NCBI GenBank assembly: GCA_963725235.1
Contig: CAVRXN010000002.1
Coordinates: 186,902-250,901, forward strand
DNA from: an uncultured bacterium
Lineage (GTDB): Bacteria; Patescibacteriota; Minisyncoccia; UBA6257; 2-01-FULL-56-20
DNA length: 64,000 nt
Direction of reading: 5' to 3'
Below the pieces are notes generated by a model that saw only the letters and a list, made by a program, of their open reading frames with translations, was not told where the DNA came from and made no database searches. The position numbers and the translations under genes were made by a program. Of the stretch, positions 6,633-48,268 are shown in pieces; position 1 is the first letter of the stretch; each line of letters begins with the position of its first letter.

Positions 6633-7718
6633 ATGCAAAATCCTTTTAATAATCTTTTTAACTTTGGCAGCAATTCATATCTTGCGGTCGATATTGGGAC
6701 GACATCTATTAAGGCGGTGGAAATAAAAACCGACAAGCGCGCGCCGCGGATTACCAATTACGGCGTGCTCGAATCGAGCGGCTATTTGGCGCGGGCGAAC
6801 CAGGCGCTCCAGACGAGCAGTTTGAAAATATTCGAAGGCGACGTTATCGAATTGCTAAAAACGTTGACCAAGCAGATGGGCGTGCAAACGTCTCAGGCGG
6901 TCGCATCACTCCCGCCGTTTTCGGCATTTACGACCGTCCTCGATTTTCCGAAGATGGATCCGAAGGAAATCGAGAAGGCCATGGTGTATCAGGCGAAGCA
7001 GTATGTCCCGCTACCGCTTTCCGAAGTAGCGCTCGATTGGCTCTTGATCGGCGAGTATCAGGATGATAAAGGATTCGAACACCAAAAAATTATGCTGATC
7101 TCCGTCCCGCAGGAGCAGATCCAAAAATATCAGCGGATTTTTAAAGGTGCGGGCCTCGACTTGAAAGCGCTCGAGATCGAAAGTCTAAGTATCGCGCGGA
7201 CGATGAGCGACGATCCGACGCCGACGCTCGTTATCGATATCGGCAGCCGATCGACGAATATCGTCTTCATGGAAGACGGCCGGTTTACGTTCAGCGGCCA
7301 GAGTGATTTCGGCGGCGCATCGCTTACCCAGGCGCTCGCGACGAGCTTAGGCATCAATCCGTTGCGAGCCGAGGAACTGAAAAAAGAGCGTGGCATCGTC
7401 GGCACCGGGCCGAACTACGAATTATCCACAATCATGCTTCCATTTTTAGATGCTATACTGAATGAGGTGAAGAAGGTCCAGTTTTTATACCAGCAACAGC
7501 TGCCGTCGGCAAGGAAAACCGAGCGCGTCGTACTCGCCGGCGGAGGAGCCAACCTCCTCGGCATCGAAAAGTATTTCGAACGGGAGTTCGGCATGCCGGT
7601 TGTAAAGGCTGCGCCGTTTCTGAAGTATGATCACCCGGCTTCCATCGAACCCTTCGTTTCGGAGCTCAATCCGGTTATGTCGATCGCGCTCGGCCTCGGC
7701 ATGAAGATTGCAAAATAA
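6633..7718 (+). CDS. pilM: Type IV pilus assembly protein PilM (actin-like ATPase fold)
   Basis: N-terminal LAVDIGTTSIKAVEIK phosphate-1 motif, LVIDIGSRSTNIVF, VVLAGGGANLLGIEKYFEREFGMPV. First gene of the pilMNO block. Confidence 0.85.
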   Translation: MQNPFNNLFNFGSNSYLAVDIGTTSIKAVEIKTDKRAPRITNYGVLESSGYLARANQALQTSSLKIFEGDVIELLKTLTKQMGVQTSQAVASLPPFSAFTTVLDFPKMDPKEIEKAMVYQAKQYVPLPLSEVALDWLLIGEYQDDKGFEHQKIMLISVPQEQIQKYQRIFKGAGLDLKALEIESLSIARTMSDDPTPTLVIDIGSRSTNIVFMEDGRFTFSGQSDFGGASLTQALATSLGINPLRAEELKKERGIVGTGPNYELSTIMLPFLDAILNEVKKVQFLYQQQLPSARKTERVVLAGGGANLLGIEKYFEREFGMPVVKAAPFLKYDHPASIEPFVSELNPVMSIALGLGMKIAK

Positions 7719-13476: not shown

Positions 13477-13998
13477 ATGTTAAACGAAATGAAAGATTTC
13501 AACCGAAAGGGTTTTACGCTTATCGAAATCTTGATCGTCGTCGCAATCATCGCAATCTTGGCATCCATCGTTCTCGTCGGTCTCGGGCCCAGCCAACAGG
13601 CAGGCCGCGATGCGCGCCGATTGTCGGATTTGCATGAAATCCAGACCGGTCTCGAATTGTACTACAATGCCTGCGGATATTATCCAGGTACCGACACAAA
13701 AACGCCGTGTACTGGATATAAAAACTCAACAGGATTCGTAGCCCTAAAAGGCATTCTTACCGGATTTGCGAGTTTAGGTATCACCAGCGTTCCTGATGAT
13801 CCGACAGGAGGGAAGCATTATACTTATAGCACTGTTCCAGGTACAGGAACTTCGTATGTGTTGAGTGCTACTTTGGAAAATGCTAATAATACCGTTTTCA
13901 CGAGCTACACTCCTCCAAATAATGCAGCGGCTGCTACTGATGGAGATGGCAAGCAGACCTGTGCTGCGGCTGGTCCTCAGTATTGTATTTCTATCTAG
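13477..13998 (+). CDS. pilA: Major type IV pilin (prepilin with N-terminal cleavage/methylation motif)
   Basis: Leader ..NRKG followed by FTLIEILIVVAIIAILASIVLVGL (G/FTLIE class III signal, Glu5). A strong terminator lies immediately downstream. Confidence 0.85.
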   Translation: MLNEMKDFNRKGFTLIEILIVVAIIAILASIVLVGLGPSQQAGRDARRLSDLHEIQTGLELYYNACGYYPGTDTKTPCTGYKNSTGFVALKGILTGFASLGITSVPDDPTGGKHYTYSTVPGTGTSYVLSATLENANNTVFTSYTPPNNAAAATDGDGKQTCAAAGPQYCISI

Positions 13999-14030
13999 TG
14001 TAGTGTTAGGTTGGTGGAATCGTTTTCCCG

Positions 14031-14056
14031 AAAACCCCGCCTCGTGCGGGGTTTTT
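14031..14056 (+). terminator. Rho-independent terminator after the pilin gene
   Basis: AAAACCCCGC-CTCGT-GCGGGGTTTT: a GC-rich stem followed by a T-run. Confidence 0.7.
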
Positions 14057-14212
14057 GATTGTCGGCGAGCGCGGTGCAGCAAGGGGAGATTTCAGCAACT
14101 CAAAAACCGCCTTTTAGCGGTCTTTGATCGGGGTACTTTTGGCACCCAGCCTCCTCGCCAGATGATTATCATAATACCCCCGTTGTGTCGGGTTCTGCGC
14201 TATAATAAACCC

Positions 14213-15067
14213 ATGCTCTGGTTTCTTCTCTTTGTCTTCGGCGCAGCGATCGGGAGTTTTTTAAACGTCGTCGCGGTTCGGTATGACGGCGAAAAGTTTT
14301 TGTTCTCAACGAAAGCGATCGGCGGCCGCTCGCATTGTCCGCACTGCAAGAAAACCCTCCAGTGGTACGAACTGATCCCACTCGCCAGCTTCGCAATACA
14401 AGGCGGCAAGTGCCGAAACTGCAAAGCGCACATCTCATGGCGCTATCCGATTATGGAACTGCTCTCCGCCGCTATCTTTGTCTTCGTCCCATTCTTTCTG
14501 TCTTCTGTCTCCCTGTCTTCTTTGTCTTTTGTCTCCCTGTCTCTCGTCTGGGTGTTCGCATTCGAGCTCCTCCTCCTGATCGCCTACATCGACCTCTTGC
14601 TAACCATCATCCCGGATGAACTAAACATCGCCCTTGCCGTCGTCGCACTCGTCGAGATCATATTATCAATACACGCGTTCGGCGCCGCCAACCAATCATC
14701 CTTCGGCCCATTCGCAAGCGTCTTCGGCTTACAATCGAATATCTGGATCAACCACATAGTCGCCGCCGTGTTCGGCGTCGCGTTCTTCGGCGCGATCGTC
14801 GGCGCGACGCGTGGACGGGGGATGGGTATGGGCGACGCGAAGCTCGCGTTGCCGCTCGGCCTGCTCTTCGGCTGGCCCGATATCCTGATCATCGCCATGA
14901 TAGCGTTCGTCATCGGCGGCGCGTACGGGCTGATCGCGATAACGGCTGGCAGGAAGACGATGAAAAGCGCTGTGCCATTCGGACCATTCCTCGTCATCGC
15001 CTCGACCATCGCATTCTTCGCCGGCACCGGTTTATTTAACTGGTATTTCCATATGTTAGGATTATAG
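14213..15067 (+). CDS. pilD: Prepilin peptidase / N-methyltransferase PilD (A24 family)
   Basis: MLWFLLFVFGAAIGSFLNVV, zinc cysteines CPHC..C.NC, catalytic Asp motifs IDLLLTIIPDE and GMGMGDAKL. TATAAT at 14201-14206 is 6 nt from the ATG. The longer ORF from 13865 crosses the pilin terminator and is rejected. Confidence 0.9.
   Translation: MLWFLLFVFGAAIGSFLNVVAVRYDGEKFLFSTKAIGGRSHCPHCKKTLQWYELIPLASFAIQGGKCRNCKAHISWRYPIMELLSAAIFVFVPFFLSSVSLSSLSFVSLSLVWVFAFELLLLIAYIDLLLTIIPDELNIALAVVALVEIILSIHAFGAANQSSFGPFASVFGLQSNIWINHIVAAVFGVAFFGAIVGATRGRGMGMGDAKLALPLGLLFGWPDILIIAMIAFVIGGAYGLIAITAGRKTMKSAVPFGPFLVIASTIAFFAGTGLFNWYFHMLGL
14476..14557 (+). repeat. GAGACA-type dispersed repeat, copy C, embedded in frame in pilD
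   Basis: CTTTGTCTTCGTCCCATTCTTTCTGTCTTCTGTCTCCCTGTCTTCTTTGTCTTTTGTCTCCCTGTCTCTCGTCTGGGTGTTC. Contains the exact 14-mer TGTCTTCTGTCTCC and 10-mer GTCTGGGTGT found in the reverse complement of copy A. Translated as FVPFFLSSVSLSSLSFVSLSLVWVF. Confidence 0.7.
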
Positions 15068-29235: not shown

Positions 29236-29310
29236 GTCCCCGTAGTTCAACGGATAGAACGGCTCACTCCTAACGAGTCGATCGAGGTTCAATTCCTCGC
29301 GGGGACACCA
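29236..29310 (+). tRNA. tRNA-Arg (anticodon CCT), CCA encoded
   Basis: Acceptor GTCCCCG/CGGGGAC, D arm GTTC-AACGGATA-GAAC, anticodon loop CTCCTAA, T arm CGAGG-TTCAATT-CCTCG, ACCA tail. The 3' half is overlapped on the opposite strand by the recombinase ORF. Confidence 0.85.
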
Positions 29311-30757
29311 CGCTTGAGTTAGTCCCCTCAGATGTCGAGATAGTGTTGAAAAGACGGCCCATCTGAGCGGTTCGAATATTTCCATTCAAAAATCCGGCCG
29401 GAAGAAGAAGACGATTGAACCGCTGGCGGAAGCTCGGTTTGAGCGACTCCCAAGTCGCGCGGAGTTTGCCCAAGGGCGCACTGATTTCGGTCAAGTGTTT
29501 GCGAGTGTGCTCGGCATTTATCACTCGGCACTTTTTCCCTTCGATAACCTCCTGTCGCTCAAGGATTGTTCTCTTCTGGCGCACGTACTCCTCGTCCGTA
29601 ATTAGACCTTTGGAACGCATACTGATCAGTTCATCCACTTCCCGATCTAGGTTGCGGGCGCGTTCTCGACTGCGCCGGAGCGACGCTCGTCCATCCGTCT
29701 CCCGATCGTGGGCTTCCGCGAGAACAGCGTCTCGGAGCTTTTGCAGCGCCTCCTGCGTTGGTGCGACCTGATCAAGAAAGGCCATGAAGTCCGCATATGG
29801 ACGGTCGATTGGAACGCTCTTGCCATATTTTGTGCACGCCTTGAACCGGCATACGTAATAAGGATAGAGACGGCTTCTGCCGCGTGAAGAACCGCCAGTC
29901 ATGTAGTGGGAACACGAATCGCATCGGATAAGGCCGCGCAGCGGAAACAAGGAATTCACTTTTTGGTGGGCTACCGAATGGTTCCGGCGAGCGATCACGC
30001 GTTGCACGCGCAGAAACTCATCCCGCGTTACCATCGGAGCTTGTTTTCCCTCGTACTCTTCACCGCTCCAAGGATCAACAAGGATTCCCACGTAGTATTT
30101 GTTCGTGAAGAGGAGTGACAGGAATTGTGGGCTGAATGCACCGTTGCCATGGGGGCTCGTAAGGCCACGCGACACCATAAGCCGACCGATTTCAGCCTGC
30201 GTGTAGGCGCCGGTCGCGAAATCTCTCCATGCCCGTTGCAGTAATCCAAAAGTCGGCTGGTCCGGCAGATCGGGAAACAGTTTCTTTTCCTTCTTCGTGA
30301 CAGAACTCTTGTACCCGAGCGGCGGCCCCCAAGGGAAGATACCCTCCTGGAGTTTTCGCCGCATTCCCTGCACCGTCCGCGCCGCACGGATGTCATTATC
30401 AAATTGCGCGAATCCGGCCAGGATCGTTTCCATCAGCTTGCCTTCCGGATTGGCATCGATTGGTTCAGTAACCGACATGATGCGCACGCCGTACTTTGCG
30501 AGCGTGGCTTTCACGCTGAAGTGATCCGCCACGTTCCGCGCGAATCGGTCAACTTTCCACACGAGAAGCGCTTGGACTGTGCCTTTGTTCTCTCGACAAA
30601 AATCGATCAGTTCGATGAGCTGCGTCCGGTCAGCGAATTTCGCGGATTCGCCTTGTTCGATAAATGCTTTCAATACGCGAATGTCCTTCGAGCGGGCATA
30701 TTCCTGGCACGCCGCCTGCTGCGATTCGAGGCTGGTGCCTTCTATTTGCTCCTTTGA
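29270..30757 (-). pseudogene. Large serine recombinase, 5'-truncated (catalytic-Ser N-terminus missing)
   Basis: Homology runs from ..SKEQIEGTSLESQQAACQEYARSKDIRVLKAFIEQGESAKF..LLVWKVDRFARN (resolvase domain) through the recombinase and zinc-ribbon domains (CDSCSHYM..YYVCR) and a coiled coil. No start codon or beta1/Ser motif exists upstream. The last 41 nt are antisense to tRNA-Arg. Confidence 0.75.
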
Positions 30758-32107: not shown

Positions 32108-33346
32108 ATGAGAAAAGGTTTTACCCTCATCGAGCTTCTGGTCGTAATCGCTATCATCGCGATACTTTCTGTCGTCGTGATCTTCGCGCTCAATCCGGTC
32201 GTACTCCTCGAGCAGGGGCGGGATTCGTCGCGTATGTCGGACATGGCGGTCCTCAACAACAACATCAATTTTGCGAGTGAGGTAGGCAGCGGAGGCGGGA
32301 TATCCCTCGGCTCGCCCGACACCGTCTATATTTCCATCCCTGATCCCGTTGCAACATCCACTGCCGGTGATCAGTGCCAGGGTCTCGGACTCGGAACGCT
32401 TCCCTCGGGCTGGGCCTATCACTGCGCCGCATCATCCACCTATCACAATGTAAATGGCACGGGCTGGGTGCCGATCAACTTCACCATCCTCCCGGGAGGT
32501 AGCCCATCGGGTGCGTTGCCCGTTGATCCCGTGAACCAAACTTCAACGTTCCTCTATTACACCTACGTCATGAATTCGAGCTACCAGTACCAGCTCTATG
32601 CCCACTTCGAGTCGCCGAGTTACCAAGCCCAGGAATCGACGGAAGGCACGCCGGGGATAGACCCCGAGACCTACAAGATAGGGACGAACGTGGATATCGC
32701 TCCCTTTGCCGGAGGGATGGCCGGCTATTGGCCATTTACGGAAGGAAATGGAGCGACAACAGGTGACCTTTCTGGATATGGAAATACGGGTACGCTAACT
32801 AATGTCTCTTGGATCACCGGAACTCATGGCGCGGCTCTCAGTTTTAATGGGAATAATAGTATCGTCACTCTCTCCAACGCCGATGTCATAGGTTCGGGGC
32901 CGTTTACTTTCATTGCATGGGTTAATGCGACGACATCACCGGATCTTGAAATTCTCTTTACGACTGGCTATACCGGTTGCACGATTGTCGCCGCCTGGGC
33001 TCCGGGAGCCAATTTTGATTGTACTAATACTAATTATGCAAATGTCGCAACTGCTGGTAGCAACGGGTCATACACATCGTATTTGGGTCACTGGACGCAA
33101 GTGGCAGCGGTCCGGAACATAAATGGGGCGTACACCCTTTATATAAATGGCAGTCAGGTAGGCTTCGCTAATCAGAATGCCGGACCTGTGACCGGTGGCG
33201 GCGGATACACCGTGATCGGATGTGGTGGGTATAGCCCTCCTTGCGCGCCCAATGGAGATTTTAGCGGGGAGATGAATGACATCTTTTTATATAGTCGTCC
33301 GCTTAGCGCAACAGAGATTGCAGCCATCTACAATGCGACACAATGA
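32108..33346 (+). CDS. Type IV pilin-like protein fused to a LamG/concanavalin-A-like lectin domain
   Basis: MRKG-FTLIELLVVIAIIAILSVVV class III signal. The C-terminal half has LamG_3-like features (GYWPFTEGNG..DLSGYGNTGTL..HGAALSFNG.., FTFIAWVN, YTLYINGSQV, FSGEMNDIFLYSRPLSATEI). Confidence 0.75.
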   Translation: MRKGFTLIELLVVIAIIAILSVVVIFALNPVVLLEQGRDSSRMSDMAVLNNNINFASEVGSGGGISLGSPDTVYISIPDPVATSTAGDQCQGLGLGTLPSGWAYHCAASSTYHNVNGTGWVPINFTILPGGSPSGALPVDPVNQTSTFLYYTYVMNSSYQYQLYAHFESPSYQAQESTEGTPGIDPETYKIGTNVDIAPFAGGMAGYWPFTEGNGATTGDLSGYGNTGTLTNVSWITGTHGAALSFNGNNSIVTLSNADVIGSGPFTFIAWVNATTSPDLEILFTTGYTGCTIVAAWAPGANFDCTNTNYANVATAGSNGSYTSYLGHWTQVAAVRNINGAYTLYINGSQVGFANQNAGPVTGGGGYTVIGCGGYSPPCAPNGDFSGEMNDIFLYSRPLSATEIAAIYNATQ

Positions 33347-33563
33347 TGAGAAATGTATGTGGCGTTTCAGGCCATATTCACTATTGTTATGTTATAATTA
33401 GGATGATATCAATGGGCAAGTTTTCATTATTATCTCGTCTTGGATGCGCCTCGGTTGCGCTCGTAGCAATGCTCATGTTTTTGGCTCTTTCTCCGAATGC
33501 GCATGCGGCGATTTCTTTTGTGAGTGCAACTAGCACACCCGTAACAGATGGCACTCTCATAAG

Positions 33564-34567
33564 CTGTGAATTACGAAATTCCCTTTTTCATATGAATACG
33601 GAGAACGCAAAGGAACCGCAGTGGTCTGCGGATTTCAAGTTTTTTGAACAGGACCCATCAAACACACAAAAGAAAGTTACTTGCTGAGCACAAAGGAACA
33701 GACAGCGTTCGCGTAGTTCGCGAGGTAGCCGTCAACGGAACGCGGCAGCGACGTCACGAGGCCGTAGAACAGTTTCATGGAGCGGAAGTCGAATTCGATC
33801 TGGAACCTCGACCGGTAGAGCTTCAACTGCCAGGGCAGGGCGAGCTTCTTCATGCTCCTGAGCGGGCGGATCATGACCCACCGCTTGCCATCGATGTTCA
33901 TATCCTTCTCCAGTTGCTTCGAGACATAGCCCGCATCGGCAACGATGACACCGTTAATATCTTTGTTCACGGAACGGAAAAGGTCGCGGTCATTCTTCGT
34001 CGCATCCGAGAACCGGATGCCGAGGATGTTTCCGTCCGCATCCCGCGTCATCGTCATTTTGAGCCCGTAATACCAGCCTTTCGAGCTCCTGCCGAGGGAT
34101 GCGAACGCTTTCATCACCCGGTGGGAATCGGCATTCTTCTTGAGGCAGACCGGAAGGTCGGTCGCATCCGTGTACTTCACGAGATGCCCATGGGCCTTTC
34201 CCCATTGCATGATGATCGCGAGGATCTTCATCGCGAAAACGCCGGCACGGTTCATGGCAACGACAAGCGTCTTGTATGAGCAGGCGAGCCCATCCTTGAA
34301 ATCCTCGTATACGGACTTCTTCGTAGCCCGTGTGCTCGCATGCTGGTAGAGGGCTAATGCCACCGCATCCAGATTTTCAATTTTCAGAGGTCGACCTTGG
34401 GGATTCTTTTTGTGTGTCAGATTGAGCTTGAATGATGTTACAATATCAGTGATCCTGTTCTTGAGATTTCTCAAGATGGGTGAATTCATTTTGTCGTGAG
34501 AGGCGCCTTCGGGCGCCTTTTGCATTATGCCGTATTCATATGAAAAAGGGAATTTCGTAATTCACAG
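33564..34567 (-). mobile_element. IS982-family insertion sequence, 1004 bp, with perfect 38-bp terminal inverted repeats and an 8-bp target-site duplication
   Basis: IR CTGTGAATTACGAAATTCCCTTTTTCATATGAATACGG at 33564-33601, with its exact reverse complement at 34530-34567. Direct repeat CTCATAAG at 33556-33563 and 34568-34575. Confidence 0.9.
33677..34525 (-). CDS. IS982-family DDE transposase
   Basis: DDE triad contexts YTDATDLPVC, VIVADAGYVS, RSRFQIEFDFRSMK. 282 aa, filling the IS. Confidence 0.8.
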   Translation of the reverse strand: MQKAPEGASHDKMNSPILRNLKNRITDIVTSFKLNLTHKKNPQGRPLKIENLDAVALALYQHASTRATKKSVYEDFKDGLACSYKTLVVAMNRAGVFAMKILAIIMQWGKAHGHLVKYTDATDLPVCLKKNADSHRVMKAFASLGRSSKGWYYGLKMTMTRDADGNILGIRFSDATKNDRDLFRSVNKDINGVIVADAGYVSKQLEKDMNIDGKRWVMIRPLRSMKKLALPWQLKLYRSRFQIEFDFRSMKLFYGLVTSLPRSVDGYLANYANAVCSFVLSK

Positions 34568-36304
34568 CTCATAAGCAGTGACACAAAACAGTTTGCGATC
34601 AACGCCACTGACCTCGTTTTGGTAACCTGTCAGTTTATTGGCGGCGGTACAGGAACTGCCGTCACTTCAACCGTAACTGACACCCTCGGCAACACCTACA
34701 CCAACTTCGGGGGAGCACAGATCAATGGGGGTGACAACTCTGAAGTTCAGATGTTCTACGCCATCAGTTCGAGCACCAATGCTTCCGACGCCATAGCATG
34801 CAACTATGCAACTAGCTCTAACTTCGCTGTGGTTGGGATAGATCAGTACGGCGGCGTTGTTCAGACAAATCCATTGGACGTCTCAAATACCACCCAATGG
34901 TTTTTCGGGACCGGCGCAACGTCAACTGCATTTACGACCACGAACGCCAACGATGTAATTGTCGCCGCCGTCGGCGATGATACTAATCAAACTCATACTG
35001 CCGGAACAAATTACACGATGCGCCTTACAGGGTCGGTTCAAAATCCTTTCGAAGATTGGATAGCCACCTCAACTCAAACGAATGCGACGGCAAACATGTC
35101 CGGACCAGGCAATACCCATGCCGTGATGGTTATAGGGGCCTTCAAAGCGGCCGACCTCACCCCTCCCTCCGTTACCATCGTCTCTCCCACCTCAGGCTCT
35201 ATAGTTTCTTCTACCATCACTCTTTCCGTTTCTTCCACTGATAATGTAGGTGTCGCAGGCGTCCAATTCCAGATAGATGGAACAAATCTCGGATCAGAGG
35301 TAACCGCCACCTCAGGCCCCACTATATATAGCACCACCTGGAACACAGCCTCTTCTACCGATAGCTCTCATACAATCTCCGCCATCGCCTATGACTCCTC
35401 GAACAACAGTTCGACCGCTACCTCCAGCGTCACCGTCCACAACGCCCTCTTGAACGTCACGACCTCCACATCCCTCAGCTTCTCTGCTACCTCAGGGGAT
35501 ACCGCAACTTCTTCCCAAGTTATCGTCATCCAAAACACCGGTACGGCATCCAGCACCCTCTCCTGGACATCCACATCCACCCAATCCTGGCTTACCCTCT
35601 CATCTACCTCAGGTTCTCTTGCGGGTAGCACCACGTCGTCTCTTCTCCTCATTGCCGATCCCTCAGGTCTCTCCGCCGCCACCTATACCGCAACGGCCAC
35701 CATCACCGATTCAAATCTCTCAAGCTCCTATCTCTCTCTTCCCATAACATTTACGATCGCCGCAAGTTCCACGCCCGCTCCAGAGACCCTCCCTGCCGTT
35801 GGCGTCGCCTCCGCTTACGGCATCCCCACCTATTGGCTGCTCCCGAGTTCCACAGACCCAACCTCAGGAGACACTGCGGCATCCTCATCGCCTGCGTCAT
35901 CTCCCACATCACTCGCTTCCCTCCAGGCCACCCTCGCATCTCTTGAAGCCAAGCTCCAATCCCTCCTTGCAGAAGCAGAAAGCCAAGGCATCACGATACC
36001 GAACCTCCCGGCCTCAGTATCTTCTCCCCAAACTCCCTTCTCCTTCACCCGAAATCTCTCCCTCTGGGACCAGGGATCTGATGTAGAAGCTCTCCAGCAA
36101 TTCCTCGTCACCCAGAACACCGGACCCCATGCACAAAAGCTCAAATCCCATGGCACAACCCAATTCTTTGGCTTCCTTACGCACAACGCCCTCAAGGAAT
36201 ACCAAGCGAGCGTGGGTCTTCCTGCCACGGGATACTTTGGGGAGATGACGAGGAACCATCTGCATTCTCAAGCAGGAAATACAAAATAATATCATGAAAT
36301 CATA

Positions 36305-39300
36305 ATGAAAAAATACATCCTCGTTCTGGTTGGTTTTTTCATCTTTCTCTCCTTCATCTCACAAACTCACGCTGCAATCTCCTTTGTAAGTGCCGCCAAC
36401 ACAGCACAAGGGAATGGCACACTGGCCACGAACTCATCCCTTACCGCCTCCGTCTCCTCAGGTAATCTCCTCGTCGTGGTTTGTGATTACTATGGCGGCG
36501 GCACGGGAGTCGCTGTCACTTCGTCCGTGACCGACACTATCGGCAATACTTTTACCAACTTTGGCGGTGGCTTGTTGAACTCCGGCGCCAATAGCGAGGA
36601 GCAGATGTTCTATTCCATCAGTTCCGGCAGTAATGCAGCCGACAATATCAGTTGTAACTACGCCACGAACTCCAATTACGCCTCTATGGCTGTTGCTCAA
36701 TACAATGGCGTTACCACGTCGAGTCCTCTTGATGCTTCGAACATAACCCAGTGGTACTTTGCTCCCAACGTCACCTCGACTCCTTTCACCACCACCCAGG
36801 CCAATGAGGTCATCGTCGCGGCTGTTGGAAGTGCCGCCGTAGGATATACGTTCATTCCCGGAACCAACTACATCCTCCGCACTACGGCAACCAACCCCGA
36901 TGCCATCGAGGATTGGATCACGGGTTCAATGCAAACCAATCAGGTTGCTGGCATGAGCGTGAGCAGCGGGGATACGAGGGGCGTGATGGTGGTAGGAACG
37001 TTCAAACTTGCCTCTGGCGGTAGTGGTTTAGCCACGTCTACCTTCACCCTCACAAATGGCGGTGGTGGGTCGGTTACCAGCAATCCTGCCGGCATCAATT
37101 GCGGCAGTATCTGTTCCATGACTGTGAATAATGGTACAAGTATCACGCTCATCGCAACACCAAACTTGGGATACACGACGAGCTGGAGTAATTGTGGCGG
37201 TACGACGAGTGGCGGCACATGCACTCTTATAGTGAACGCCGATACTACGGTCAGCGTTGTCTTCAACGCCCCCGACACCACTCCTCCTTCCATTCCGAAC
37301 AGCCTTAGCGCTAATGCCGTCTCCTCCTCGCAAATCAATCTATCTTGGACCGCGTCCACGGACAATATCAGCGTCACGGGTTATAACATCTACCGCAACG
37401 GTTCCAAAATCGGTACGACCGCAAACACTGCGTACAGCGATACTGGCTTGTCCGCCTCAACTCAATACACCTACACGATCTCCGCCTATGACGCCGCAGG
37501 CAACACTTCATCCCAGTCGACTAGTGCGAGCGCGACAACCTTGGCTAGCGAAGGCGGAAGTGGAGGCAGTCCTCTGGCCGCAGGGATTATTGACCCATCC
37601 CGTGACGTTGATTGGAGCCAAGCTGGCATCCCCGGGGGCATTCCGAATCGAACCACCCAATGCGGCGCGACTATCGCAGCGTACGGGACAAGTGCTTCTC
37701 CGGCATCTCCCGCAACCATCAACAACGCGGTTGCCAGTTGTCCAGCAGGACAATTCGTCTCACTCGGAGCGGGTACTTTCTATCTGAATGCCGGCTTATG
37801 GTTTGGCGGGAACAATAACATCACCCTCCGTGGACAAGGAGCTGATCAGACCGACCTTGTCTTTAGTGGCCATTTTGGCTGCAATGGACCTTGGGCGTCT
37901 GTATGTATGGCCGGCGGTGTCAATTCTCCTGGATACGAAGATAATGTTTGCGATTGGGCCGCCGGATACGCAAGGGGCTCTACTCAGATCACTCTTGCGA
38001 ACTGTGGAACGACGCTGCCTAATAAAGGGAGTCTATCCAATCTCAAGGTAGGCAGTATGTTGACCTTGGACCAAGTAGATGAGACAGCTGATACTGGACA
38101 CATTTGGAATTGCGCTGCAGGCACGGCATGCGACGATGGACTGCAAGGTGGGTTTGGACGAACCGATGGTCCGAGCGTCAACGGTACTAATATTCGATCC
38201 CAGCAACAAGTAGTAACTGTCACTGCTATCAACGGCAACCAGGTCACGATTTCCCCAGGTCTTTACATGTCGAATTGGAGAAGTTCGCAGGCGCCACAGG
38301 CTTGGTTTGCAAATCCAAACGGTCAAGTTCAAGGGGAAGGATTAGAAAATCTTTCCCTGAATCAAACCACCAGCAATGGCGCCGACGCCGTTGAAATTAT
38401 GAACTGTAACGGATGTTGGGTGAAGGGCATCCGTTCGATTGATCCGGCGCGGGCCCATATACAACTCTTAGTCGACACTCATTCCGTGGTCGAGGATAGT
38501 TACTTCTATCAGGGCCAATCTCATCAGGCGGTCAGTTATGCGACCGAGTTCGATACCGTAGGAGACTCTTTGTTTCAAAATAATATTTGTCAGCAAGCGA
38601 CAGATAGTTGCCCAAACAACAACGGAGGAGCTGAGGGCAATGTCTGGGCATATAACTTTGCTATTGACGACGTATTTCTTGCTAATGGATGGTTTGTGCA
38701 AAGCGCTTTCGAGCATGCCGCCGGTGGCGCTATGAATCTCTGGGAAGGGAATATAGGTCCCGGATATAGTTCGGATGATATTCATGGAACACATCATTTC
38801 GAGACCATATTCCGCAATTATTTTCCGGGAGACCAGGCGGCTGGATGCGGGAGTGCCGGTGATAATGTCTGCAATGCCCAAACGACACCAATGATTCTGG
38901 CTGCGGGCTCTCGTTATTTTAATATCATCGGGAATGTGCTCGGCGATCCAGGGTATCACGGCACGTACACCTATTCGTCTGCGTCAACAGGAGCAACGCA
39001 CGGTGGCAGTACGTATTCCATTTACACGCTTGGCTATATTGAAAATGATGGTTGGTCGACGGATTCAAATATCACTGGCTTCTGCCTTTCTCCTTCGTGC
39101 ACGACCACGGGCGATTATGATCCGCAGGTTGGAAATTATCTTTTCCGCTGGGGTAACTGGGATGTGGTGAATGATTCTACTCAGTGGAATCCGTCTGAAG
39201 TCCCCACTAATATAGGTCCCTATTCGAATCCCGTCCCTTCTGGCGAAACTCTCCCTCCTTCTCTCTATCTGACCGACAAACCTTCTTTTTGGGACAGCAT

Positions 39301-41143
39301 GCCTTGGCCTGGTATCGGTCCCGACGTCACAGGTGGTACTGTGACCGGATCGTCGCTCGGACTTGCAGCTTCAGGTCCTGCGACCAACCTCGGTGGCCAC
39401 ATCTACATGAATCCTGCCATGAATTGCTTCTTGAATACTATGGGCGGGCCCGTCGATGGCACCGGCAATGTCCTTAGTTTCAATGCTGCCACCTGTTATC
39501 CTGGTGACTATCCTTCCGGCGGCTCCAATCCTCCTCCCGACACCACCCCTCCGACCACCAGCATCACTTCTCCTACCAACAACGCCACCGCCTCCGGCAC
39601 CCTCGCCGTCACCGCCACTGCCTCAGATAATGTGGGCGTCACCTCCGTCCAGCTTTACGTGGACGGCTCTCTCGGAGGGAGGGACACCACTGCTCCCTAT
39701 ACCTTCTCCCTTGATACGACCTCTCTTTCAAATGGCATCCATACCCTCGCAACCAAGGCCTCTGACGCCCCAGGGAACATAGGAAGTTCTCCCAACATAT
39801 CTATCACCGTATCAAACACCACCTCCACCTCAACCCCCGAGACCCTCTCTGCCAATCTCTCCGCATCCTTCCTCTCGGGAACTGCCCCTCTCACCATCAA
39901 TCTTTCCGCCGCCGCCGCCGGCACCGCCCAAGGCACCATCAATTACATCTTTTACTGCAATAGGCCTGATACCGGCACCAATATCACGAGTCCTGCCGAC
40001 CTCACGATCAACGCCACGAACCAGAATCCTTACGTAGCAAGCAACCTCTGCACCTACCAATCCGCAGGCACCTACACCTCCAAGGTCATCATTGAGCAGG
40101 GAAGCGCCCCACCCGCACAGGTACAACAAACCATCACCGTCTCAGCCCCCAGTTCGGGAGGAGGGACGTCTGGTGGAGGGGGCGGCGGTTCTTCAGGGGG
40201 CGGAAGCACCGGAGGTGGCGGATCTTCCTCTGGCGGAGGTGGTGGAGGCGGATCATCTGGCGGAAGTGGAAGTACAGGTGGCGGCTCCTCTTCTGGAGGT
40301 GGCACCGGCCCCGCCTTCTCGCTCGGCATCACGGTCGCGACCTCAACCACAACCTCGGCCAAGATCACGGTAACGACGTCCGTTCCCGCACAGACCCAGC
40401 TCTTCTACGGCACCAACCCCAGCTATGGATCAACCACGCTCCTCTCCTTGCCTCTCACGACGAGCTATTTCAACCTCCCGAACCTTGTGCCGAACACTAA
40501 GTACTATCTGAAGGCCGTGTCGCTTGCGGGCGGGCAAACCGTCTCCCAAAGCATTACCTTCATTCCGGGTCAAGGCATCCCTGCGCCTGTAGCTTCATCC
40601 TCAACCGCGCCCCTCCCTCCCTTCACGAGGAACCTCACGATTGGATCGGAAGGATCAGATGTCCTTGAGCTCCAGGAGTTTCTCAACCAATGGGGCTATA
40701 CGATAGCTCCCCAAGGACCTGGTTCCAAAGGAAACGAAACAACGCATTTCGGTTCCCTTACCACGAAAGCCGTCCAAAAGTTCCAATCGGCGGAACAGAT
40801 CACTCCTGTCTCTGGCTATGTAGGACCTCTTACCCGAGCGAAGCTCAACCAATTGATCGGAGGTAGTCAAACAACGACGCCCGCCCCGACACCTTCAGCT
40901 TCAGGATCTCTTACTGAGAATCTCTCAGTAGGATCGACCGGAGCTCAAGTGATCGAGCTCCAAAACCTCCTTACCAAAGACGACGACTATGCTGGACCCG
41001 TCACCGGATACTACGGAACCCTTACCAAACAAGCCGTTCAAGCCTTCCAATCCAAGTACGGCATCATCTCTTATGGCACGCCTGACACCACAGGCTATGG
41101 TGCTGTGGGGCCGAAGACGAGAAATCAATTGGAAATGCTATAG
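36305..41143 (+). CDS. Giant (1612 aa) secreted multidomain surface protein. Domains in order: paralog-specific N-domain, FN3, right-handed beta-helix (pectate-lyase/tailspike-like) region, Ig-like, PKD-like, Gly/Ser linker, FN3-like, and two peptidoglycan-binding domains.
   Basis: Signal peptide ..ISQTHA. FN3 PDTTPPSIPNSLSANAVSSSQINLSWTAS..YNIYRNG..YTYTISAYDAAGN. Beta-helix entry motif INNAVASCPAGQFVSLGAGTFYL..ITLRGQGADQTDLVF. Ig-like TSPTNNATASGTLAVTATASDNVGVTSVQLYVDG. Two C-terminal PG_binding_1-like repeats (GSDVLELQEFLN.., GAQVIELQNLLT..). Confidence 0.8.
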   Translation: MKKYILVLVGFFIFLSFISQTHAAISFVSAANTAQGNGTLATNSSLTASVSSGNLLVVVCDYYGGGTGVAVTSSVTDTIGNTFTNFGGGLLNSGANSEEQMFYSISSGSNAADNISCNYATNSNYASMAVAQYNGVTTSSPLDASNITQWYFAPNVTSTPFTTTQANEVIVAAVGSAAVGYTFIPGTNYILRTTATNPDAIEDWITGSMQTNQVAGMSVSSGDTRGVMVVGTFKLASGGSGLATSTFTLTNGGGGSVTSNPAGINCGSICSMTVNNGTSITLIATPNLGYTTSWSNCGGTTSGGTCTLIVNADTTVSVVFNAPDTTPPSIPNSLSANAVSSSQINLSWTASTDNISVTGYNIYRNGSKIGTTANTAYSDTGLSASTQYTYTISAYDAAGNTSSQSTSASATTLASEGGSGGSPLAAGIIDPSRDVDWSQAGIPGGIPNRTTQCGATIAAYGTSASPASPATINNAVASCPAGQFVSLGAGTFYLNAGLWFGGNNNITLRGQGADQTDLVFSGHFGCNGPWASVCMAGGVNSPGYEDNVCDWAAGYARGSTQITLANCGTTLPNKGSLSNLKVGSMLTLDQVDETADTGHIWNCAAGTACDDGLQGGFGRTDGPSVNGTNIRSQQQVVTVTAINGNQVTISPGLYMSNWRSSQAPQAWFANPNGQVQGEGLENLSLNQTTSNGADAVEIMNCNGCWVKGIRSIDPARAHIQLLVDTHSVVEDSYFYQGQSHQAVSYATEFDTVGDSLFQNNICQQATDSCPNNNGGAEGNVWAYNFAIDDVFLANGWFVQSAFEHAAGGAMNLWEGNIGPGYSSDDIHGTHHFETIFRNYFPGDQAAGCGSAGDNVCNAQTTPMILAAGSRYFNIIGNVLGDPGYHGTYTYSSASTGATHGGSTYSIYTLGYIENDGWSTDSNITGFCLSPSCTTTGDYDPQVGNYLFRWGNWDVVNDSTQWNPSEVPTNIGPYSNPVPSGETLPPSLYLTDKPSFWDSMPWPGIGPDVTGGTVTGSSLGLAASGPATNLGGHIYMNPAMNCFLNTMGGPVDGTGNVLSFNAATCYPGDYPSGGSNPPPDTTPPTTSITSPTNNATASGTLAVTATASDNVGVTSVQLYVDGSLGGRDTTAPYTFSLDTTSLSNGIHTLATKASDAPGNIGSSPNISITVSNTTSTSTPETLSANLSASFLSGTAPLTINLSAAAAGTAQGTINYIFYCNRPDTGTNITSPADLTINATNQNPYVASNLCTYQSAGTYTSKVIIEQGSAPPAQVQQTITVSAPSSGGGTSGGGGGGSSGGGSTGGGGSSSGGGGGGGSSGGSGSTGGGSSSGGGTGPAFSLGITVATSTTTSAKITVTTSVPAQTQLFYGTNPSYGSTTLLSLPLTTSYFNLPNLVPNTKYYLKAVSLAGGQTVSQSITFIPGQGIPAPVASSSTAPLPPFTRNLTIGSEGSDVLELQEFLNQWGYTIAPQGPGSKGNETTHFGSLTTKAVQKFQSAEQITPVSGYVGPLTRAKLNQLIGGSQTTTPAPTPSASGSLTENLSVGSTGAQVIELQNLLTKDDDYAGPVTGYYGTLTKQAVQAFQSKYGIISYGTPDTTGYGAVGPKTRNQLEML
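40151..40309 (+). repeat. Low-complexity GGN/AGY tract encoding a ~53-aa Gly/Ser linker
   Basis: Encodes SSGGGTSGGGGGGSSGGGSTGGGGSSSGGGGGGGSSGGSGSTGGGSSSGGGTG inside the giant protein. Confidence 0.8.
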
Positions 41144-41179
41144 GGTTTGGGGCCCAGGAAACTTGCTACTATCGGCTAG

Positions 41180-41431: not shown

Positions 41432-41463
41432 TTGTTTCTGACGAGCTCTGAAATCTTCCGCCT

Positions 41464-41987: not shown

Positions 41988-42001
41988 TGCGGAAGATGAG
42001 A

Positions 42002-43088
42002 TACATCGGTGACACTCTGGTGTTGCCCGATGACCTACAAACTACGGATCAAAAATAGCGGCAAAACGAGGTATGCTGGGCACAACATGCCTACCTCCCA
42101 TATCCTGCCGGGGGCGATGGAACTCGCCCGCATTCCAACCCTCAGCCGCGAAGCCAAGAAGCGTCTGGACTGGTTTGATTTCTACCGGGCAAACAAAGAG
42201 AATGCGGCGTTGACCTGCCGCCACTTCGGCATCAGCCGGGAATGTTTTTACGAATGGAAGCGGAGATATGATCCATTCAACCTCTCATCACTCGAGGAGA
42301 AAAGCCGTGCGCCCAAGAAGACGCGAACGTGGGAAGTGTCACGAATTGAAGAGTTCCGCATCCTGCGTCTGCGTCGCGCCCACATCCGCTGGGGCAAGAT
42401 GAAGCTCAGGATTCTGTACGGGCAGGAATATGGCACGCCCATCTCGTCGTGGAAAATCCAGCGAGTGATCGAAAAGCATCAGCTGTATTTCCATCCGGCG
42501 AAGAACGAGAAGCTTGCCAAGAAACGTAAGCAGAACCAGCCCAAAAAACGCATCACGGAGCTCAAGAAGGAGCAACGTGCGGGATTTCTCGTGGCACTCG
42601 ACACCGTCGTGCGGCATACGGCCGGACTCAAGCGATATATCCTCACGGGGATCGACGTCCACTCGAAAATCGCCTTTGCGCGGATGTATCCGGGGCACGG
42701 GTCGAACCATGCGGCTGATTTCCTGAAGCGGATCAATTACCTGTTTGATGCGAAGATCGAGAATCTCCAGACGGACAATGGCAGCGAGTTTGCAAAATAT
42801 TTCCGGGAGGCAGCTGCAGAACTTTCGTTGCCGCATTACCATTCGCGTCCGAGAACGCCCAAAGACAATCCCGTGGACGAACGGTTCAATGGCACCATCG
42901 AGCGGGAATTTCTCCAGCTGGGCAACATGAGTACCGACTGCGATGCCTTCAATCGAAAGATGACCGAGTGGCTGATCGAATACAATTTCAAGCGTCCCCA
43001 TCAGACCCTTGGCTACGAGGTACCGGTCGAGTACCATTACAAGAACCAGAAAGTGTCACCGATGTACCCGTCCAGCACATCCACTTGA
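42002..43088 (+). mobile_element. IS481-family-like insertion sequence (boundaries approximate)
   Basis: Single rve-type transposase ORF. Imperfect inverted repeats TACATCGGTGACACTCTGGT (42002-42021) and ACCAGAAAGTGTCACCGATGTA (43045-43066). No clear target duplication was seen, and the ORF stop lies 22 nt beyond the right repeat. Confidence 0.55.
42009..43088 (+). CDS. IS481-family DDE transposase/integrase (HTH + rve core); probable start at 42087
   Basis: HTH region CRHFGISRECFYEWKRRY. DDE contexts LVALDTVV, LQTDNGSEF, PKDNPVDERFNGTIEREF. C-terminal YNFKRPHQTLGY. Confidence 0.8.
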   Translation: MTLWCCPMTYKLRIKNSGKTRYAGHNMPTSHILPGAMELARIPTLSREAKKRLDWFDFYRANKENAALTCRHFGISRECFYEWKRRYDPFNLSSLEEKSRAPKKTRTWEVSRIEEFRILRLRRAHIRWGKMKLRILYGQEYGTPISSWKIQRVIEKHQLYFHPAKNEKLAKKRKQNQPKKRITELKKEQRAGFLVALDTVVRHTAGLKRYILTGIDVHSKIAFARMYPGHGSNHAADFLKRINYLFDAKIENLQTDNGSEFAKYFREAAAELSLPHYHSRPRTPKDNPVDERFNGTIEREFLQLGNMSTDCDAFNRKMTEWLIEYNFKRPHQTLGYEVPVEYHYKNQKVSPMYPSSTST

Positions 43089-44169: not shown

Positions 44170-44852
44170 TTGCTAGGTCGGACGACGACGGGTATTACGC
44201 TGAGGAGATCAACCAATTAAAGGAGCGATACGGTAGCCTCCGGAACATTTTGGCCCAAGCTCGTCCTGAGGATTTCCCAGCGAGATCAAGACGGCGCAGA
44301 GTCTGCGAGCGCATTGAGGAACTGCGAGGGTTTTTGGCGGTGCGTGCTCAGAATCCTGATCCCGCTACCTTGCTCGACGAATTGTTTCCACGCGAGAACG
44401 AAGGCACTAGGGCGATGCGGCTGATTTTTGACGGATTGTTCGAAGACGACGATACCCCAGCGTCGTTGTACGGCAAATATATCGATTATGCGAGATCTGT
44501 GCCGCAAGCCGCGAATACGGTAAGGATCATGAGCCTCATGGCATCCAAAGGTCTCCAAGCCGAGCACGTGTATATCATGGGATGCAATAGTGGCAATATC
44601 CCCGGCGCGAATAGATCGGTTCACTTAACGGATGCCGAGCATCGGCAAGAACAGCTTCGTTTTCTGTATGTTGGCTTCACGCGTGCGACGCGGTCCCTTA
44701 CGGTCAGTTGGGCACGAGAAATCCCCTTCAGCCAAGCGATGGGCCAACACACTCCCGGTGTGCGAACCCTTCGAAGGCGCGGTCAGCAACCAACGTCCGA
44801 GGTTGGAATATCCGAGCTTCTCCAGGCTCTCAACGTCGATTGGGAGACATAA
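44170..44852 (+). pseudogene. UvrD/Rep/PcrA-type superfamily-1 helicase, C-terminal fragment only
   Basis: VRIMSLMASKGLQAEHVYIMG (motif V/VI region, compare TiH.sKGLEf..V) and EQLRFLYVGFTRATRSLTVSW (RLlYVa.TRA motif). The N-terminal ATPase motifs are absent. Confidence 0.65.
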
Positions 44853-46596: not shown

Positions 46597-47454
46597 ATGC
46601 GCACGTTACATCTCAATCGCTCGCTCAGATTTCTCTCCGTCGTCGCGTTGCTGGCTACAATCGCCGGAACACAGTTTTTATACGATGCCGTCAGCGTTCC
46701 GCCGCCTGCCGGTGAAGGTGCCGGCTTGTCGCCGGAAGTCGTCCGCATGCTCGACATGGGCTTCCATTCAACCGTCGCGTCATTCCTCTGGGTCGCGACG
46801 ATGCCTGACATTCTCGATCTGTTCCGAGACAAAACCGAATATCTCGGGCAAGTCGCATACCTAAACCAAGTCGATCCGCGCCTCAGCTATCCGTACGCGT
46901 TCTCCGTCATAACGCTGCCAGCCGTGCCGACATCGACGGGCTATACGACGGGCTTGCAAGATGCGCAGGCGATCGGCTTGCGTGGCATCGCGAATGCAAA
47001 TCCTGATTGGCGTATTCCGTATTACATGGCGTTTAATTATTATCTCGAGCTGAACGATGTAAAAGATGCGGCAATCTATTTCGATAAGGCGGCGCAAACG
47101 CCCGGCGTTCCGTATTACGCACAGCGGTTCGCGGAAAATTTCGGCGGTCAGGAAAGCCAGCGTGACACGACGATCGATCTTTGGACGACAATCCGCGATT
47201 CGACGAATGATCCCGATACGAAAGCGCGTGCGCAGGCATACATTGACCACTTCGAACTTTGGGATTATCTCCAATCCGCCGCCGACCAATACAAAAAGCA
47301 GTACGACACGGAGCCGACTGCTTTAGGTGATCTCATTACGAAAGGGATCATTCCTGGAATTCCGGAGGATCCATTCGGTTATCTCTTCGAGATCGACAGT
47401 GGAACGGTTGAGTTGAATCTTACGGCGACGTCATCGTTGTCGACGACACCGTAG
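46597..47454 (+). CDS. N-terminally anchored protein of unknown function (helical-repeat/TPR-like)
   Basis: TM anchor FLSVVALLATIAG. Segments such as YYMAFNYYLELNDVKDAAIYFDKAAQ resemble TPR-like helices. Confidence 0.5.
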   Translation: MRTLHLNRSLRFLSVVALLATIAGTQFLYDAVSVPPPAGEGAGLSPEVVRMLDMGFHSTVASFLWVATMPDILDLFRDKTEYLGQVAYLNQVDPRLSYPYAFSVITLPAVPTSTGYTTGLQDAQAIGLRGIANANPDWRIPYYMAFNYYLELNDVKDAAIYFDKAAQTPGVPYYAQRFAENFGGQESQRDTTIDLWTTIRDSTNDPDTKARAQAYIDHFELWDYLQSAADQYKKQYDTEPTALGDLITKGIIPGIPEDPFGYLFEIDSGTVELNLTATSSLSTTP

Positions 47455-48268
47455 TCGTTGATCCATTCGCCGCGTTGAGCGCATTGAACTGGGCGATCAG
47501 CTGCGAGATAAGTGTTTCAATTTGAACGATCTCGGCTTGCAAACCAGCCATACTAGTTGTGGTTTCGGCAGTCGTGCTTTTGCTCGTGCCGTTACCCGTT
47601 ACGGTCGTAACACTCGTGATGGTCCCGATGCCGACGACCGGCTTCGAAGTGTCGCGGACAATCTGCGCTTGGATCATATCCGCGCCATCGAAATAGCCAA
47701 AGACATTGATCGTGTCACCCGGCGTGATGTTCCCAAGTGCGGCACTCGTACGATCATTCAGCAGGAGCTGCGTCGCATTCGTCACATTTATTTGGAACGT
47801 GCTTGATGCCGTCGATGGTATCGGGCAATCGATCGCGGTTCCCGTGTCGGCAAATTCAGTCGCATACGAAACGCAGGAAACTGTACCCGATGCCATTGCG
47901 TCGATCGTCGTTGGCAACATAACCGAGCCAATGCTATTTACCACCAGGCCGTTGAACTGGATGAAACCAGCCGCCGGATTCACGCTGGCCGGCGGCGTTA
48001 TCGTCGTTGTTACGACGATCGTCGGCGATGGCAACGAGGAAGATGACGTGCTCGATGTCGAAGAGGTAGCGGCTATCGTATTCATGCTGGTCGCTGTTGC
48101 CGCCATTGCCGGCGTAGTCGTGCCCACGACTGAAGTCGAGGCTGTCGTTGTTGTTGCGCCGTACGTGAAGAGCTGCGCGTTTGCGAACGGCACCGCCAGG
48201 ATTCCCGCCGCGAGCATTCCGGTTGCGGCGAGCGCCACCGCGGCCGCTGCTATTCTTTTCATGTTCAT
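47420..48268 (-). CDS. Secreted Thr/Ser-rich protein of unknown function
   Basis: Signal peptide MNMKRIAAAAVALAATGMLAAGILAVPFANA. Long T/S-rich tracts. Confidence 0.55.
   Translation of the reverse strand: MNMKRIAAAAVALAATGMLAAGILAVPFANAQLFTYGATTTTASTSVVGTTTPAMAATATSMNTIAATSSTSSTSSSSLPSPTIVVTTTITPPASVNPAAGFIQFNGLVVNSIGSVMLPTTIDAMASGTVSCVSYATEFADTGTAIDCPIPSTASSTFQINVTNATQLLLNDRTSAALGNITPGDTINVFGYFDGADMIQAQIVRDTSKPVVGIGTITSVTTVTGNGTSKSTTAETTTSMAGLQAEIVQIETLISQLIAQFNALNAANGSTTTVSSTTMTSP

Follow-up and report, generated by a model that had tools for sequence, protein, structure and literature searches.

What is the function of a large secreted protein in which a module that is apparently shaped like a phage tailspike is joined to domains that bind peptidoglycan? 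The question is raised by a complete open reading frame (ORF) of 1612 amino acids, with an ATG start, that occupies positions 36305..41143 of the plus strand in a 64,000-nucleotide stretch of contig CAVRXN010000002.1 (GenBank assembly GCA_963725235.1, positions 186,902 to 250,901; hereinafter, the window) from an uncultured bacterium. The initial annotation of this stretch had listed the ORF and proposed an enzyme that attaches to a cell wall and degrades a surface glycan. The fold, the conserved residues and the anchors described below support this proposal, as do the genomic context of the homologs, the viral relatives and the affiliation of the organism, none of which were available to that annotation, and we consider it slightly better than an even guess that the protein is a peptidoglycan-tethered polysaccharide depolymerase, plausibly aimed at the exopolysaccharide (EPS) of a host, where the activity, the substrate and the owner of the wall are what we infer. 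The ORF itself is real and no assembly artefact since the identical protein is recorded both on a 510,887-bp NCBI/ENA contig and in an independent Logan assembly.

The protein starts with a Sec-type signal peptide (amino acids 1-23, ending in THA and followed by A; 36305..36373, plus strand, as are all the domains of this protein), the n, h and c regions of which were read from the sequence, and this segment, MKKYILVLVGFFIFLSFISQTHA followed by A, is the sole hydrophobic stretch of the protein, in agreement with the initial annotation. There is no transmembrane segment in the protein and no sign of an LPXTG-type sortase anchor, that is, neither an LPx[TSA]G motif nor a second hydrophobic segment, so that the only retention device is a pair of PG_binding_1 domains (PF01471) at the C-terminus, namely, domain 1 at amino acids 1450-1514 (40652..40846) and domain 2, the second stretch matching this model, at about 1538-1606 (40916..41122). 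Hidden Markov model scoring leaves little room for doubt about these two repeats, with 84.5 bits over the two stretches against a gathering cut-off of 23, and 91.7 bits when the C-terminus is taken in isolation; the region 1538-1606 also matches the N-terminal peptidoglycan-binding region of SleB and the PDB entry 6tci.

Between the signal peptide and the anchors lies a long array of domains, the composition of which differs in part from what had been read initially. The N-terminal all-beta domain (24-245; 36374..37039) is shared with an upstream paralog at 45% identity and otherwise is nearly an orphan: it has no Pfam match and only 4 other homologs, all weak, among 5.8 billion proteins, its AlphaFold2 (AF2) model, built on 6 sequences, is of low confidence (predicted local distance difference test score, pLDDT, 60), and a Foldseek search with this model retrieved no fold match below E 0.15. 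It is followed by a Flg_new_2 domain, a divergent InlB B-repeat (246-322; 37040..37270; PF18998, E 1.7e-6, 28.3 bits against a gathering cut-off of 23.6), which was missing from the earlier domain list, and by the fibronectin type III domain that was present in it (330-406; 37292..37522; PF00041, E 4e-9, 37.0 bits against a gathering threshold of 25), the region of which also matches FN3 modules of PDB sequences, chitinase A1 and others, with E 1e-15. Next comes the central module, a predicted right-handed parallel beta-helix and the putative polysaccharide depolymerase core (about 424-1065; 37574..39499; AF2 and Foldseek). The Ig-like domain behind it is a bacterial Ig domain of the Big_7 family (1083-1148; 39551..39748; PF17957, E 3e-20, 72.9 bits against a gathering threshold of 24.1). 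By contrast, the PKD-like domain that was proposed to come next had to be rejected, as no Pfam family matches residues 1160-1280 even at E <= 10, and this beta-rich segment (about 1175-1282; 39827..40150) is left unassigned. The flexible Gly/Ser linker, read from the sequence, is exactly 53 residues long (1283-1335; 40151..40309), as previously stated, and its DNA contains no tandem repeat that would suggest length variation. For the FN3-like domain after the linker (about 1338-1425; 40316..40579), the matches are weak (fn3 at E 0.077, Ig_7 at E 0.008 and Pur_ac_phosph_N at E 0.12), so that it is best described as a possible FN3/Ig-like domain.

The central module is the part of the protein on which the functional interpretation hinges. 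Residues from about 415 to 1080 yielded no match in searches of Pfam and NCBIfam, which have models for many GH and PL families, and of PDB sequences, and the entire protein failed to match the Pfam models of the pectin-lyase clan (PF12708, PF13229 and others) even at E <= 1. A monomer model built by AF2 on an alignment of 63 sequences, however, covers residues from about 424 to 1065 with a pLDDT of 88.3 and a predicted template modelling score of 0.92, and between residues of about 665 and 910 it displays one long and two short strands per coil in a regular succession, the pattern of a right-handed parallel beta-helix. The claim of a beta-helix in this region of about 600 residues thus holds in the model, with which Foldseek agrees, and the beta-helix entry signature that had been pointed out (471-520) maps to the predicted N-terminal cap helix and the first strands, or rungs. 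Every significant Foldseek match in the PDB is a beta-helix protein. The best one is the K1 capsule lyase of the Klebsiella phage NTUH-K2044-K1-1 (7w1c, E 5e-11), followed by the depolymerase S2-4 of phage K64-1 and then by the tailspikes LKA1 gp49 (4ru4), phi297 gp61 (4ru5) and AP22 gp54 (4y9v), and by KP34p57 (8bke); the phage proteins given here with their accessions span E values from 5e-11 to 1e-7, with probability 1.0. Further down come GH110, the GH141-type BT_1002, GH28, the HK620 tailspike and PL6, so that the comparison with tailspikes and with lyase and hydrolase families that had been advised puts capsule lyases and tailspikes on top and GH110, GH28 and PL6 after them. In the library of viral structures, BFVD, the matches are to tailspikes and depolymerases as well, with E values down to 8e-13. 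The structural matches have identities of 8-14% and template modelling scores (TM-scores) of 0.25-0.41 and therefore indicate a fold class, not a particular family. When the family profile was compared with PDB sequences, only fragilysin came up, at E 0.04 or worse, and was rejected as a chance-level match; among the 63 family members themselves, weak matches to PF12708 were found in 8 (the best at 1.3e-7) and to Beta_helix in 3.

The module belongs to a large family that no Pfam (2025) or NCBIfam (2026) model covers and that has no PDB sequence relative. More than 1810 homologs are 45-64% identical to it, mostly free-standing proteins of 650-750 amino acids labelled 'hypothetical', and a full HMMER scan of 1.84 billion representatives retrieved 7045 clusters (at 50% identity) with E <= 1e-3, including 2568 with E <= 1e-30. 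Among species-representative genomes, the family is concentrated in soil and peat Acidobacteriota but is found also in Elusimicrobia, Nitrospirae, Rokubacteria, Opitutaceae, Myxococcota, Fibrobacterota, Steroidobacteraceae, and Thermoplasmata and other archaeal metagenome-assembled genomes (MAGs); relatives of the module from Terriglobia are 54% identical, and the closest of all, 61-64%. The family crosses the boundary between the domains of life since full-length homologs, with 39-41% identity, are encoded in soil archaeal MAGs assigned to Thermoplasmata and 'Methanobacteriota archaeon' (loci L041, L050-L052, L054 and L071). The longer family members carry CHB_HEX_C_1, Fn3_assoc, ASH/Ig and Flg_new_2, accessory domains that are typical of extracellular carbohydrate-active proteins.

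Sequence conservation within the family suggests an enzyme. The alignment of 63 sequences contains 48 invariant and about 100 near-invariant columns, and our protein has the consensus residue in 144 of the 150 columns that are conserved at >=90%, the six exceptions being Q>P, A>D, V>I, T>A, P>S and P>D. A check for conserved residues that might form a catalytic constellation, recommended with the original prediction, thus finds many conserved polar residues in the module, and they are retained in the 1612-residue protein. Even in divergent viral homologs with 25-46% identity, R509, Y733, Y745, N759/N760, Y783/N784, H804, E814, D824, R837/N838, R870, N877, Y888, W949/N951/D953 and E965 are kept (numbering of the full protein). 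The best candidates for catalytic residues appear to be H804, E814, D824, R837 and R870, along with the tyrosines Y733, Y745 and Y783; a Glu/Asp pair would fit a hydrolase, and His/Tyr with Arg would fit a lyase. The regularly spaced asparagines, judged by the strand pattern of the model, look like a structural asparagine ladder.

The genomic context of the free-standing homologs points to polysaccharides. In all 6 loci that were annotated with Pfam, most of them from Acidobacteriota, the homolog lies inside a polysaccharide cluster of the Wzx/Wzy type. A recurrent gene set surrounds the homologs in loci of the Acidobacteriota type (L001, L002, L004, L005, L008 and L128). The clusters include genes for an AsnB-like amidotransferase (GATase_7/Asn_synthase), Wzy_C, glycosyltransferases of families GT2 and GT4, and Polysacc_deac_1, with transport provided for by either a Polysacc_synt flippase or a Wzm/Wzt ABC transporter. 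They also hold a set of SIS, GHMP-kinase, HAD and nucleotidyl-transferase genes, which we take to be a nucleotide diphosphate-heptose pathway. In 36 of 80 further loci that were searched with crude tblastn probes, a Wzy_C-like gene lies no more than 8 kb from the homolog, and 27 loci have both a Wzy_C-like and an AsnB-like gene; we found no description in the literature of an association between AsnB, Wzy_C and a beta-helix. When the entire window was searched with tblastn probes for Wzy, flippase, AsnB and glycosyltransferase, no match was detected.

Such an arrangement is not without a counterpart among characterized proteins. WceF of Pantoea stewartii is a tailspike-like beta-helix glycanase that is encoded in the stewartan cluster and hydrolyses stewartan (PMC7949094). 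The module described here resembles WceF, as well as AmsF and WcaM, in the predicted tailspike-like right-handed beta-helix, and its free-standing relatives, like WceF, are single secreted genes inside Wzx/Wzy-type clusters. Unlike these, the gene in the window is located outside any EPS cluster and encodes a protein fused to wall anchors and spacers, in a member of the candidate phyla radiation (CPR). WceF is not among the top 50 Foldseek matches, and no sequence relationship to it was detected, in that the family profile has no significant match among all PDB chains, a set that probably includes WceF.

Relatives of the module also are found in viruses. Full-length relatives, 25-46% identical to it, are encoded in 39 viral contigs of IMG/VR, and in many of these the gene order is the same, namely, an ORF of 1400-2050 amino acids, an ORF of 500-700 amino acids, the homolog and then small ORFs. 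Among the 150 ORFs that neighbour the viral homologs, PHROG families for endolysin, tape measure protein, DNA polymerase, Erf and HNH endonucleases were recognized. Instead of a gene of about 700 amino acids, some of the viral contigs have giant ORFs of 1,600-2,800 amino acids with the beta-helix module inside (L093, 2901-9299; L109; L123, 4752-9686; L124, 7824-13685). We propose that the more distant members of the family are carried by soil phages. The likeness of our protein to phage tailspikes and capsule depolymerases, which are its best structural matches, includes the relatives in viral contigs and a beta-helix that presumably is mounted on the surface and directed, on a stalk, toward the glycan of another cell. 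There are also differences: the protein has no virion-adaptor domain and would be held on a cell wall via PG_binding_1 rather than on a phage tail, and it is encoded in the chromosome of a CPR bacterium and has a Sec signal peptide.

The assignment of the organism is derived from the aspartyl-tRNA synthetase in the window, which is 78-93% identical to proteins from MAGs of Candidatus Paceibacterota, Pacebacteria and Taylorbacteria. On account of this identity, and of the type IV pilus cluster in the same window (a PilM-like protein, 6633..7718; a PilB/T2SSE ATPase, 9203..10933; and a prepilin peptidase of family A24, 13865..15067), we place it, judging by sequence, among the CPR bacteria of the class Paceibacteria. 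The organism, a tiny bacterium, probably is host-dependent, and because it is a CPR bacterium, the option of an episymbiont that acts on its host is realistic.

The architecture recurs within the CPR. A partial protein of 900 amino acids (hereinafter, P0081) from a MAG labelled 'Patescibacteria group bacterium' is colinear with the 1612-residue protein over the beta-helix, Big_7 and PG_binding_1, with 47% identity over the 781 residues of the beta-helix and Big_7 and 39% over the 99 residues of PG_binding_1, and its gene is followed by a Laminin_G_3 gene (locus L129, 2718-3535). The modules of the two proteins have different affinities, as far as can be told from a distance and neighbour-joining analysis only. 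In the trimmed alignment, the module from the window is nearest to P0001, and that of P0081 to P0032, both of which are products of EPS-cluster genes, whereas the module from the window ranks only 44th of 76 for P0081. That the two CPR modules are nearest to different EPS-cluster enzymes rather than to each other suggests that modules might have been exchanged more than once between such enzymes and the CPR stalk, a pattern that looks like the module swapping of phage receptor-binding proteins. It is conceivable, although doubtful, that soil Paceibacteria mount 'cellular tailspikes', that is, modules repeatedly captured from the EPS clusters of their hosts, or from the phages of those hosts, on a conserved wall-anchored stalk of Big_7 and PG_binding_1.

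In the window, the gene is the last of three genes on the same strand with short spacers, after a gene for a pilin with a Laminin_G_3 domain and the disrupted paralog. The former (32108..33346, plus strand) encodes a type IV pilin-like protein with a lectin-type domain (N_methyl, E 1.6e-7; Laminin_G_3, E 3.8e-17), is separated by 65 bp from the paralog downstream of it and is a probable operon partner of the surface-protein genes. The paralog (33412..36289, plus strand) had been described as truncated, and this turned out to be wrong. The gene is interrupted by a 1004-bp insertion sequence (IS) of the IS982 family (33564..34567, minus strand; DDE_Tnp_1_3 and NF033520 transpos_IS982) with its transposase at 33677..34525 on the minus strand. 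An inverted-repeat pair of 46 nucleotides (33556-33601 and 34530-34575) brackets this transposase, and an 8-bp target-site duplication, CTCATAAG, is present on both sides of the IS (33556-33563 and 34568-34575). Excision of 33564..34575 in silico restores an uninterrupted ORF of 621 amino acids, so the insertion looks recent. The restored paralog lacks the beta-helix and consists of a signal peptide, the shared N-terminal domain, Big_7, a weak BACON_2-like match (E 1.8e-4, below the gathering cut-off) and one PG_binding_1. The two proteins were said to have in common the N-terminal domain and the peptidoglycan-binding tail, and this holds for the former, which in the paralog is 45% identical to residues 6-294 of the larger protein, and for the latter with the correction that the paralog has a single PG_binding_1, with 37% identity.

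The surface-protein locus is bracketed by debris of mobile elements (29-45 kb): on one side, tRNA-Ala and tRNA-Arg beside a serine recombinase (29270..30673, minus strand; region 29110-30673), and on the other, an IS transposase of the rve family (42009..43088) and a helicase fragment that consists of UvrD_C only (44250..44852). A test for a genomic island detected neither an att-like duplicate of a tRNA nor a difference in GC content from the rest of the window. An ORF of 282 amino acids at 47420..48268 was considered as a copy of the IS982-family element, and this was ruled out. Another surface or glycan-binding protein may be encoded by an ORF of 541 amino acids (52024-53649) with weak matches to DUF7619 and NPCBM_assoc. 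A strongly negative GC skew (-0.08 to -0.22) is confined to the two surface-protein genes (34001-42000); it presumably is driven by the composition of their products, in which Gly, Thr, Ser, Ala and Asn abound and, in the 1612-residue protein, make up 54% of all residues. A scan for promoters and terminators found nothing above chance.

How, then, might the protein act? The two PG_binding_1 domains would attach it to peptidoglycan by non-covalent binding, and the simplest assumption is that this is the wall of the cell itself, given that CPR cells make peptidoglycan and have no outer membrane (PMC5220378). The tether of 53 Gly/Ser residues and the spacers of the Ig/FN3 type would project the working end outward, this end being the beta-helix of about 640 residues together with FN3, the InlB-B-repeat domain and the orphan all-beta N-terminal domain. 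The beta-helix would be the catalytic part and, by analogy, would cleave a specific surface polysaccharide, by either hydrolysis or beta-elimination. Because the CPR cell has no biosynthesis cluster of this type near the gene, the substrate most likely would come from another organism, a host or a neighbour, and might be its exopolysaccharide, capsule or O-antigen. The enzyme might clear this glycan to give access to the host surface, together with the adjacent lectin-pilin, or might serve to harvest sugars, and the protein as a whole would be the cell-mounted equivalent of a phage tailspike.

Several observations weigh against the interpretation of the protein as a depolymerase. Enzymatic activity is known for no member of the family. 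The likeness of the model to solved depolymerases is at the level of the fold class only, with low TM-scores (0.26-0.41), neither PDB chains nor CAZy-type Pfam models match the module by sequence, and the location of the conserved residues along a groove is an assumption. On the viral side, the position of the homologs suggests a tail module by position only: the large flanking ORFs have matches to PHROG or Pfam in 0 of 10, 0 of 10 and 0 of 8 cases, a single 'minor tail protein' match being the sole exception among the flanking ORFs, so that, these ORFs being almost unannotated, the argument relies on the order of the genes and on phage hallmark families found in other parts of the contigs; and a tblastn search of the GenBank phages in INPHARED found no homolog. 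Furthermore, PG_binding_1 could bind the wall of the host rather than the cell's own, and a glycan substrate of the cell itself could be made elsewhere in the genome since the 64 kb examined are part of a contig of at least 511 kb. Finally, some beta-helices are scaffolds for binding or adhesion alone, as in PfbA, an adhesin that is found at rank 42 among the Foldseek matches in the PDB.

This last point leads to the alternative that survives best, although we think it unlikely, namely, an adhesin or lectin that lacks catalytic activity: the beta-helix would bind a glycan and leave it uncut, the protein would serve as glue between the CPR cell and its partner, and PG_binding_1 would be bound to either the cell's own wall or that of the partner. 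Apart from the existence of beta-helix adhesins such as PfbA, this possibility is compatible with the wealth of adhesion-type modules in the protein (FN3, Big_7, Flg_new_2 and the orphan beta-sandwich), with the proposal that proteins of Paceibacteria with peptidoglycan-binding domains (PGBD) are attachment factors (PMC10936435), and with the properties of WceF, which itself is lectin-like and agglutinates, with slow cleavage (PMC7949094). Nevertheless, an invariant set of His, Glu, Asp, Arg and Tyr is kept from Acidobacteriota to archaea and viral contigs, and since binding surfaces normally diverge with the ligand, this favours an active site over a binding surface. In addition, the free-standing members of the family are single genes in biosynthesis clusters, as is the processing enzyme WceF.

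Catalysis could also be directed inward, such that the enzyme trims or remodels an envelope polysaccharide of the CPR cell itself, a secondary wall polymer or a capsule, for its own maintenance, as the free-standing homologs presumably do. All annotated free-standing homologs adjoin genes for the biosynthesis of the cell's own glycan, anchoring to the cell's own peptidoglycan would put the enzyme beside its own envelope, and some Parcubacteria encode many glycosyltransferases (PMC5220378). The window, however, has no homolog of Wzy, flippase, AsnB or glycosyltransferase, and the neighbours of the gene are a pilin-lectin gene, the surface-protein paralog and mobile elements; moreover, the long stalk and the tether would place the module away from the wall, and the modules of the two CPR proteins are each closest to a different cluster enzyme from outside the CPR. 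Taken together, we regard a role in self-maintenance as less probable again than that of an adhesin.

A further variant, in which the module modifies a polysaccharide instead of cleaving it, for instance, as a C5-epimerase like AlgG/AlgE or as another beta-helix modifying enzyme, appears very unlikely. A few members of the family match PF12708, the current name of which is 'Rhamnogalacturonase A/epimerase, pectate lyase-like', and a modifying enzyme also would be at home in a biosynthesis cluster. The conserved motifs NNIxQQxTD and DxxHGTHH, rich in His, Asp and Asn, may loosely resemble epimerase motifs. Yet the top 50 fold matches comprise lyases, hydrolases and tailspikes and no epimerase structure, and carriage by viruses along with fusion to wall anchors in a cell that lacks the cluster fits degradation better. 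It is extremely improbable that the gene is what remains of a prophage or mobile element, that is, a tailspike gene, domesticated or in decay, that has no role in the cell, despite the serine recombinase by two tRNA genes, the IS982-family element, the rve-type IS and the UvrD_C fragment in the region of 29-45 kb: no phage structural genes are located near it, the ORF is intact over 4.8 kb with 144 of 150 conserved positions kept, the product, in place of a virion adaptor, has wall anchors and a signal peptide of the cellular type, another Patescibacteria MAG encodes a protein with this architecture, the GC content equals that of the rest of the window, and no att-like tRNA repeat was found.

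Surface proteins of CPR bacteria with pectin-lyase-fold, FN3 and concanavalin or lectin domains have been noted in general terms (PMC5220378), and in Paceibacteria, high expression was reported for extracellular proteins that contain PGBD, Ig and PKD domains (PMC10936435). The protein described here shares with these the group of organisms, the building blocks and the presumed role at the interface between cells, and a pilin with a LamG-type domain is encoded next to it. The reported proteins, however, are domain-level annotations without a defined beta-helix family, whereas here the helix belongs to a specific, unnamed family that can be traced to EPS clusters and viral contigs. Tandem PF01471 domains are also a feature of wall enzymes anchored by PG_binding_1, such as the N-terminal domain of the spore cortex-lytic SleB, to which the second repeat aligns, and the PGBD associated with MMP and amidases, but the module attached to them in our case would be a beta-helix of the glycanase type and not a peptidoglycan hydrolase. 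Thus, CPR surface proteins with such domains and tailspike-like glycanases encoded in polysaccharide clusters are known already; the novelty lies in one particular beta-helix family that has no name yet, in the consistent association of this family with EPS clusters and viral contigs, and in a CPR bacterium that carries it on a stalk with PG_binding_1. Neither this beta-helix family nor its fusion to PG_binding_1 is described in the literature that we found.

As a presumably wall-tethered, enzyme-like module with its closest relatives in EPS clusters of Acidobacteriota and in viral contigs from soil, the protein provides a concrete, testable handle on the hosts of soil CPR bacteria and on the way in which these bacteria pass through the sugar coat of a host. 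Should it prove to be an adhesin only, there would be nothing unusual about it among CPR surface proteins. A depolymerase, in contrast, would give a function to an unnamed family of about 7,000 protein clusters in at least nine bacterial and archaeal lineages and would mean that episymbionts breach capsules with the same tool as phages. In that case, the sequence neighbours of the module could predict the host and the receptor glycan; and if modules indeed are captured repeatedly from the hosts or their phages and mounted as 'cellular tailspikes', one could read from the closest homolog in an EPS cluster which lineage hosts an uncultured CPR bacterium and which glycan serves as its receptor.

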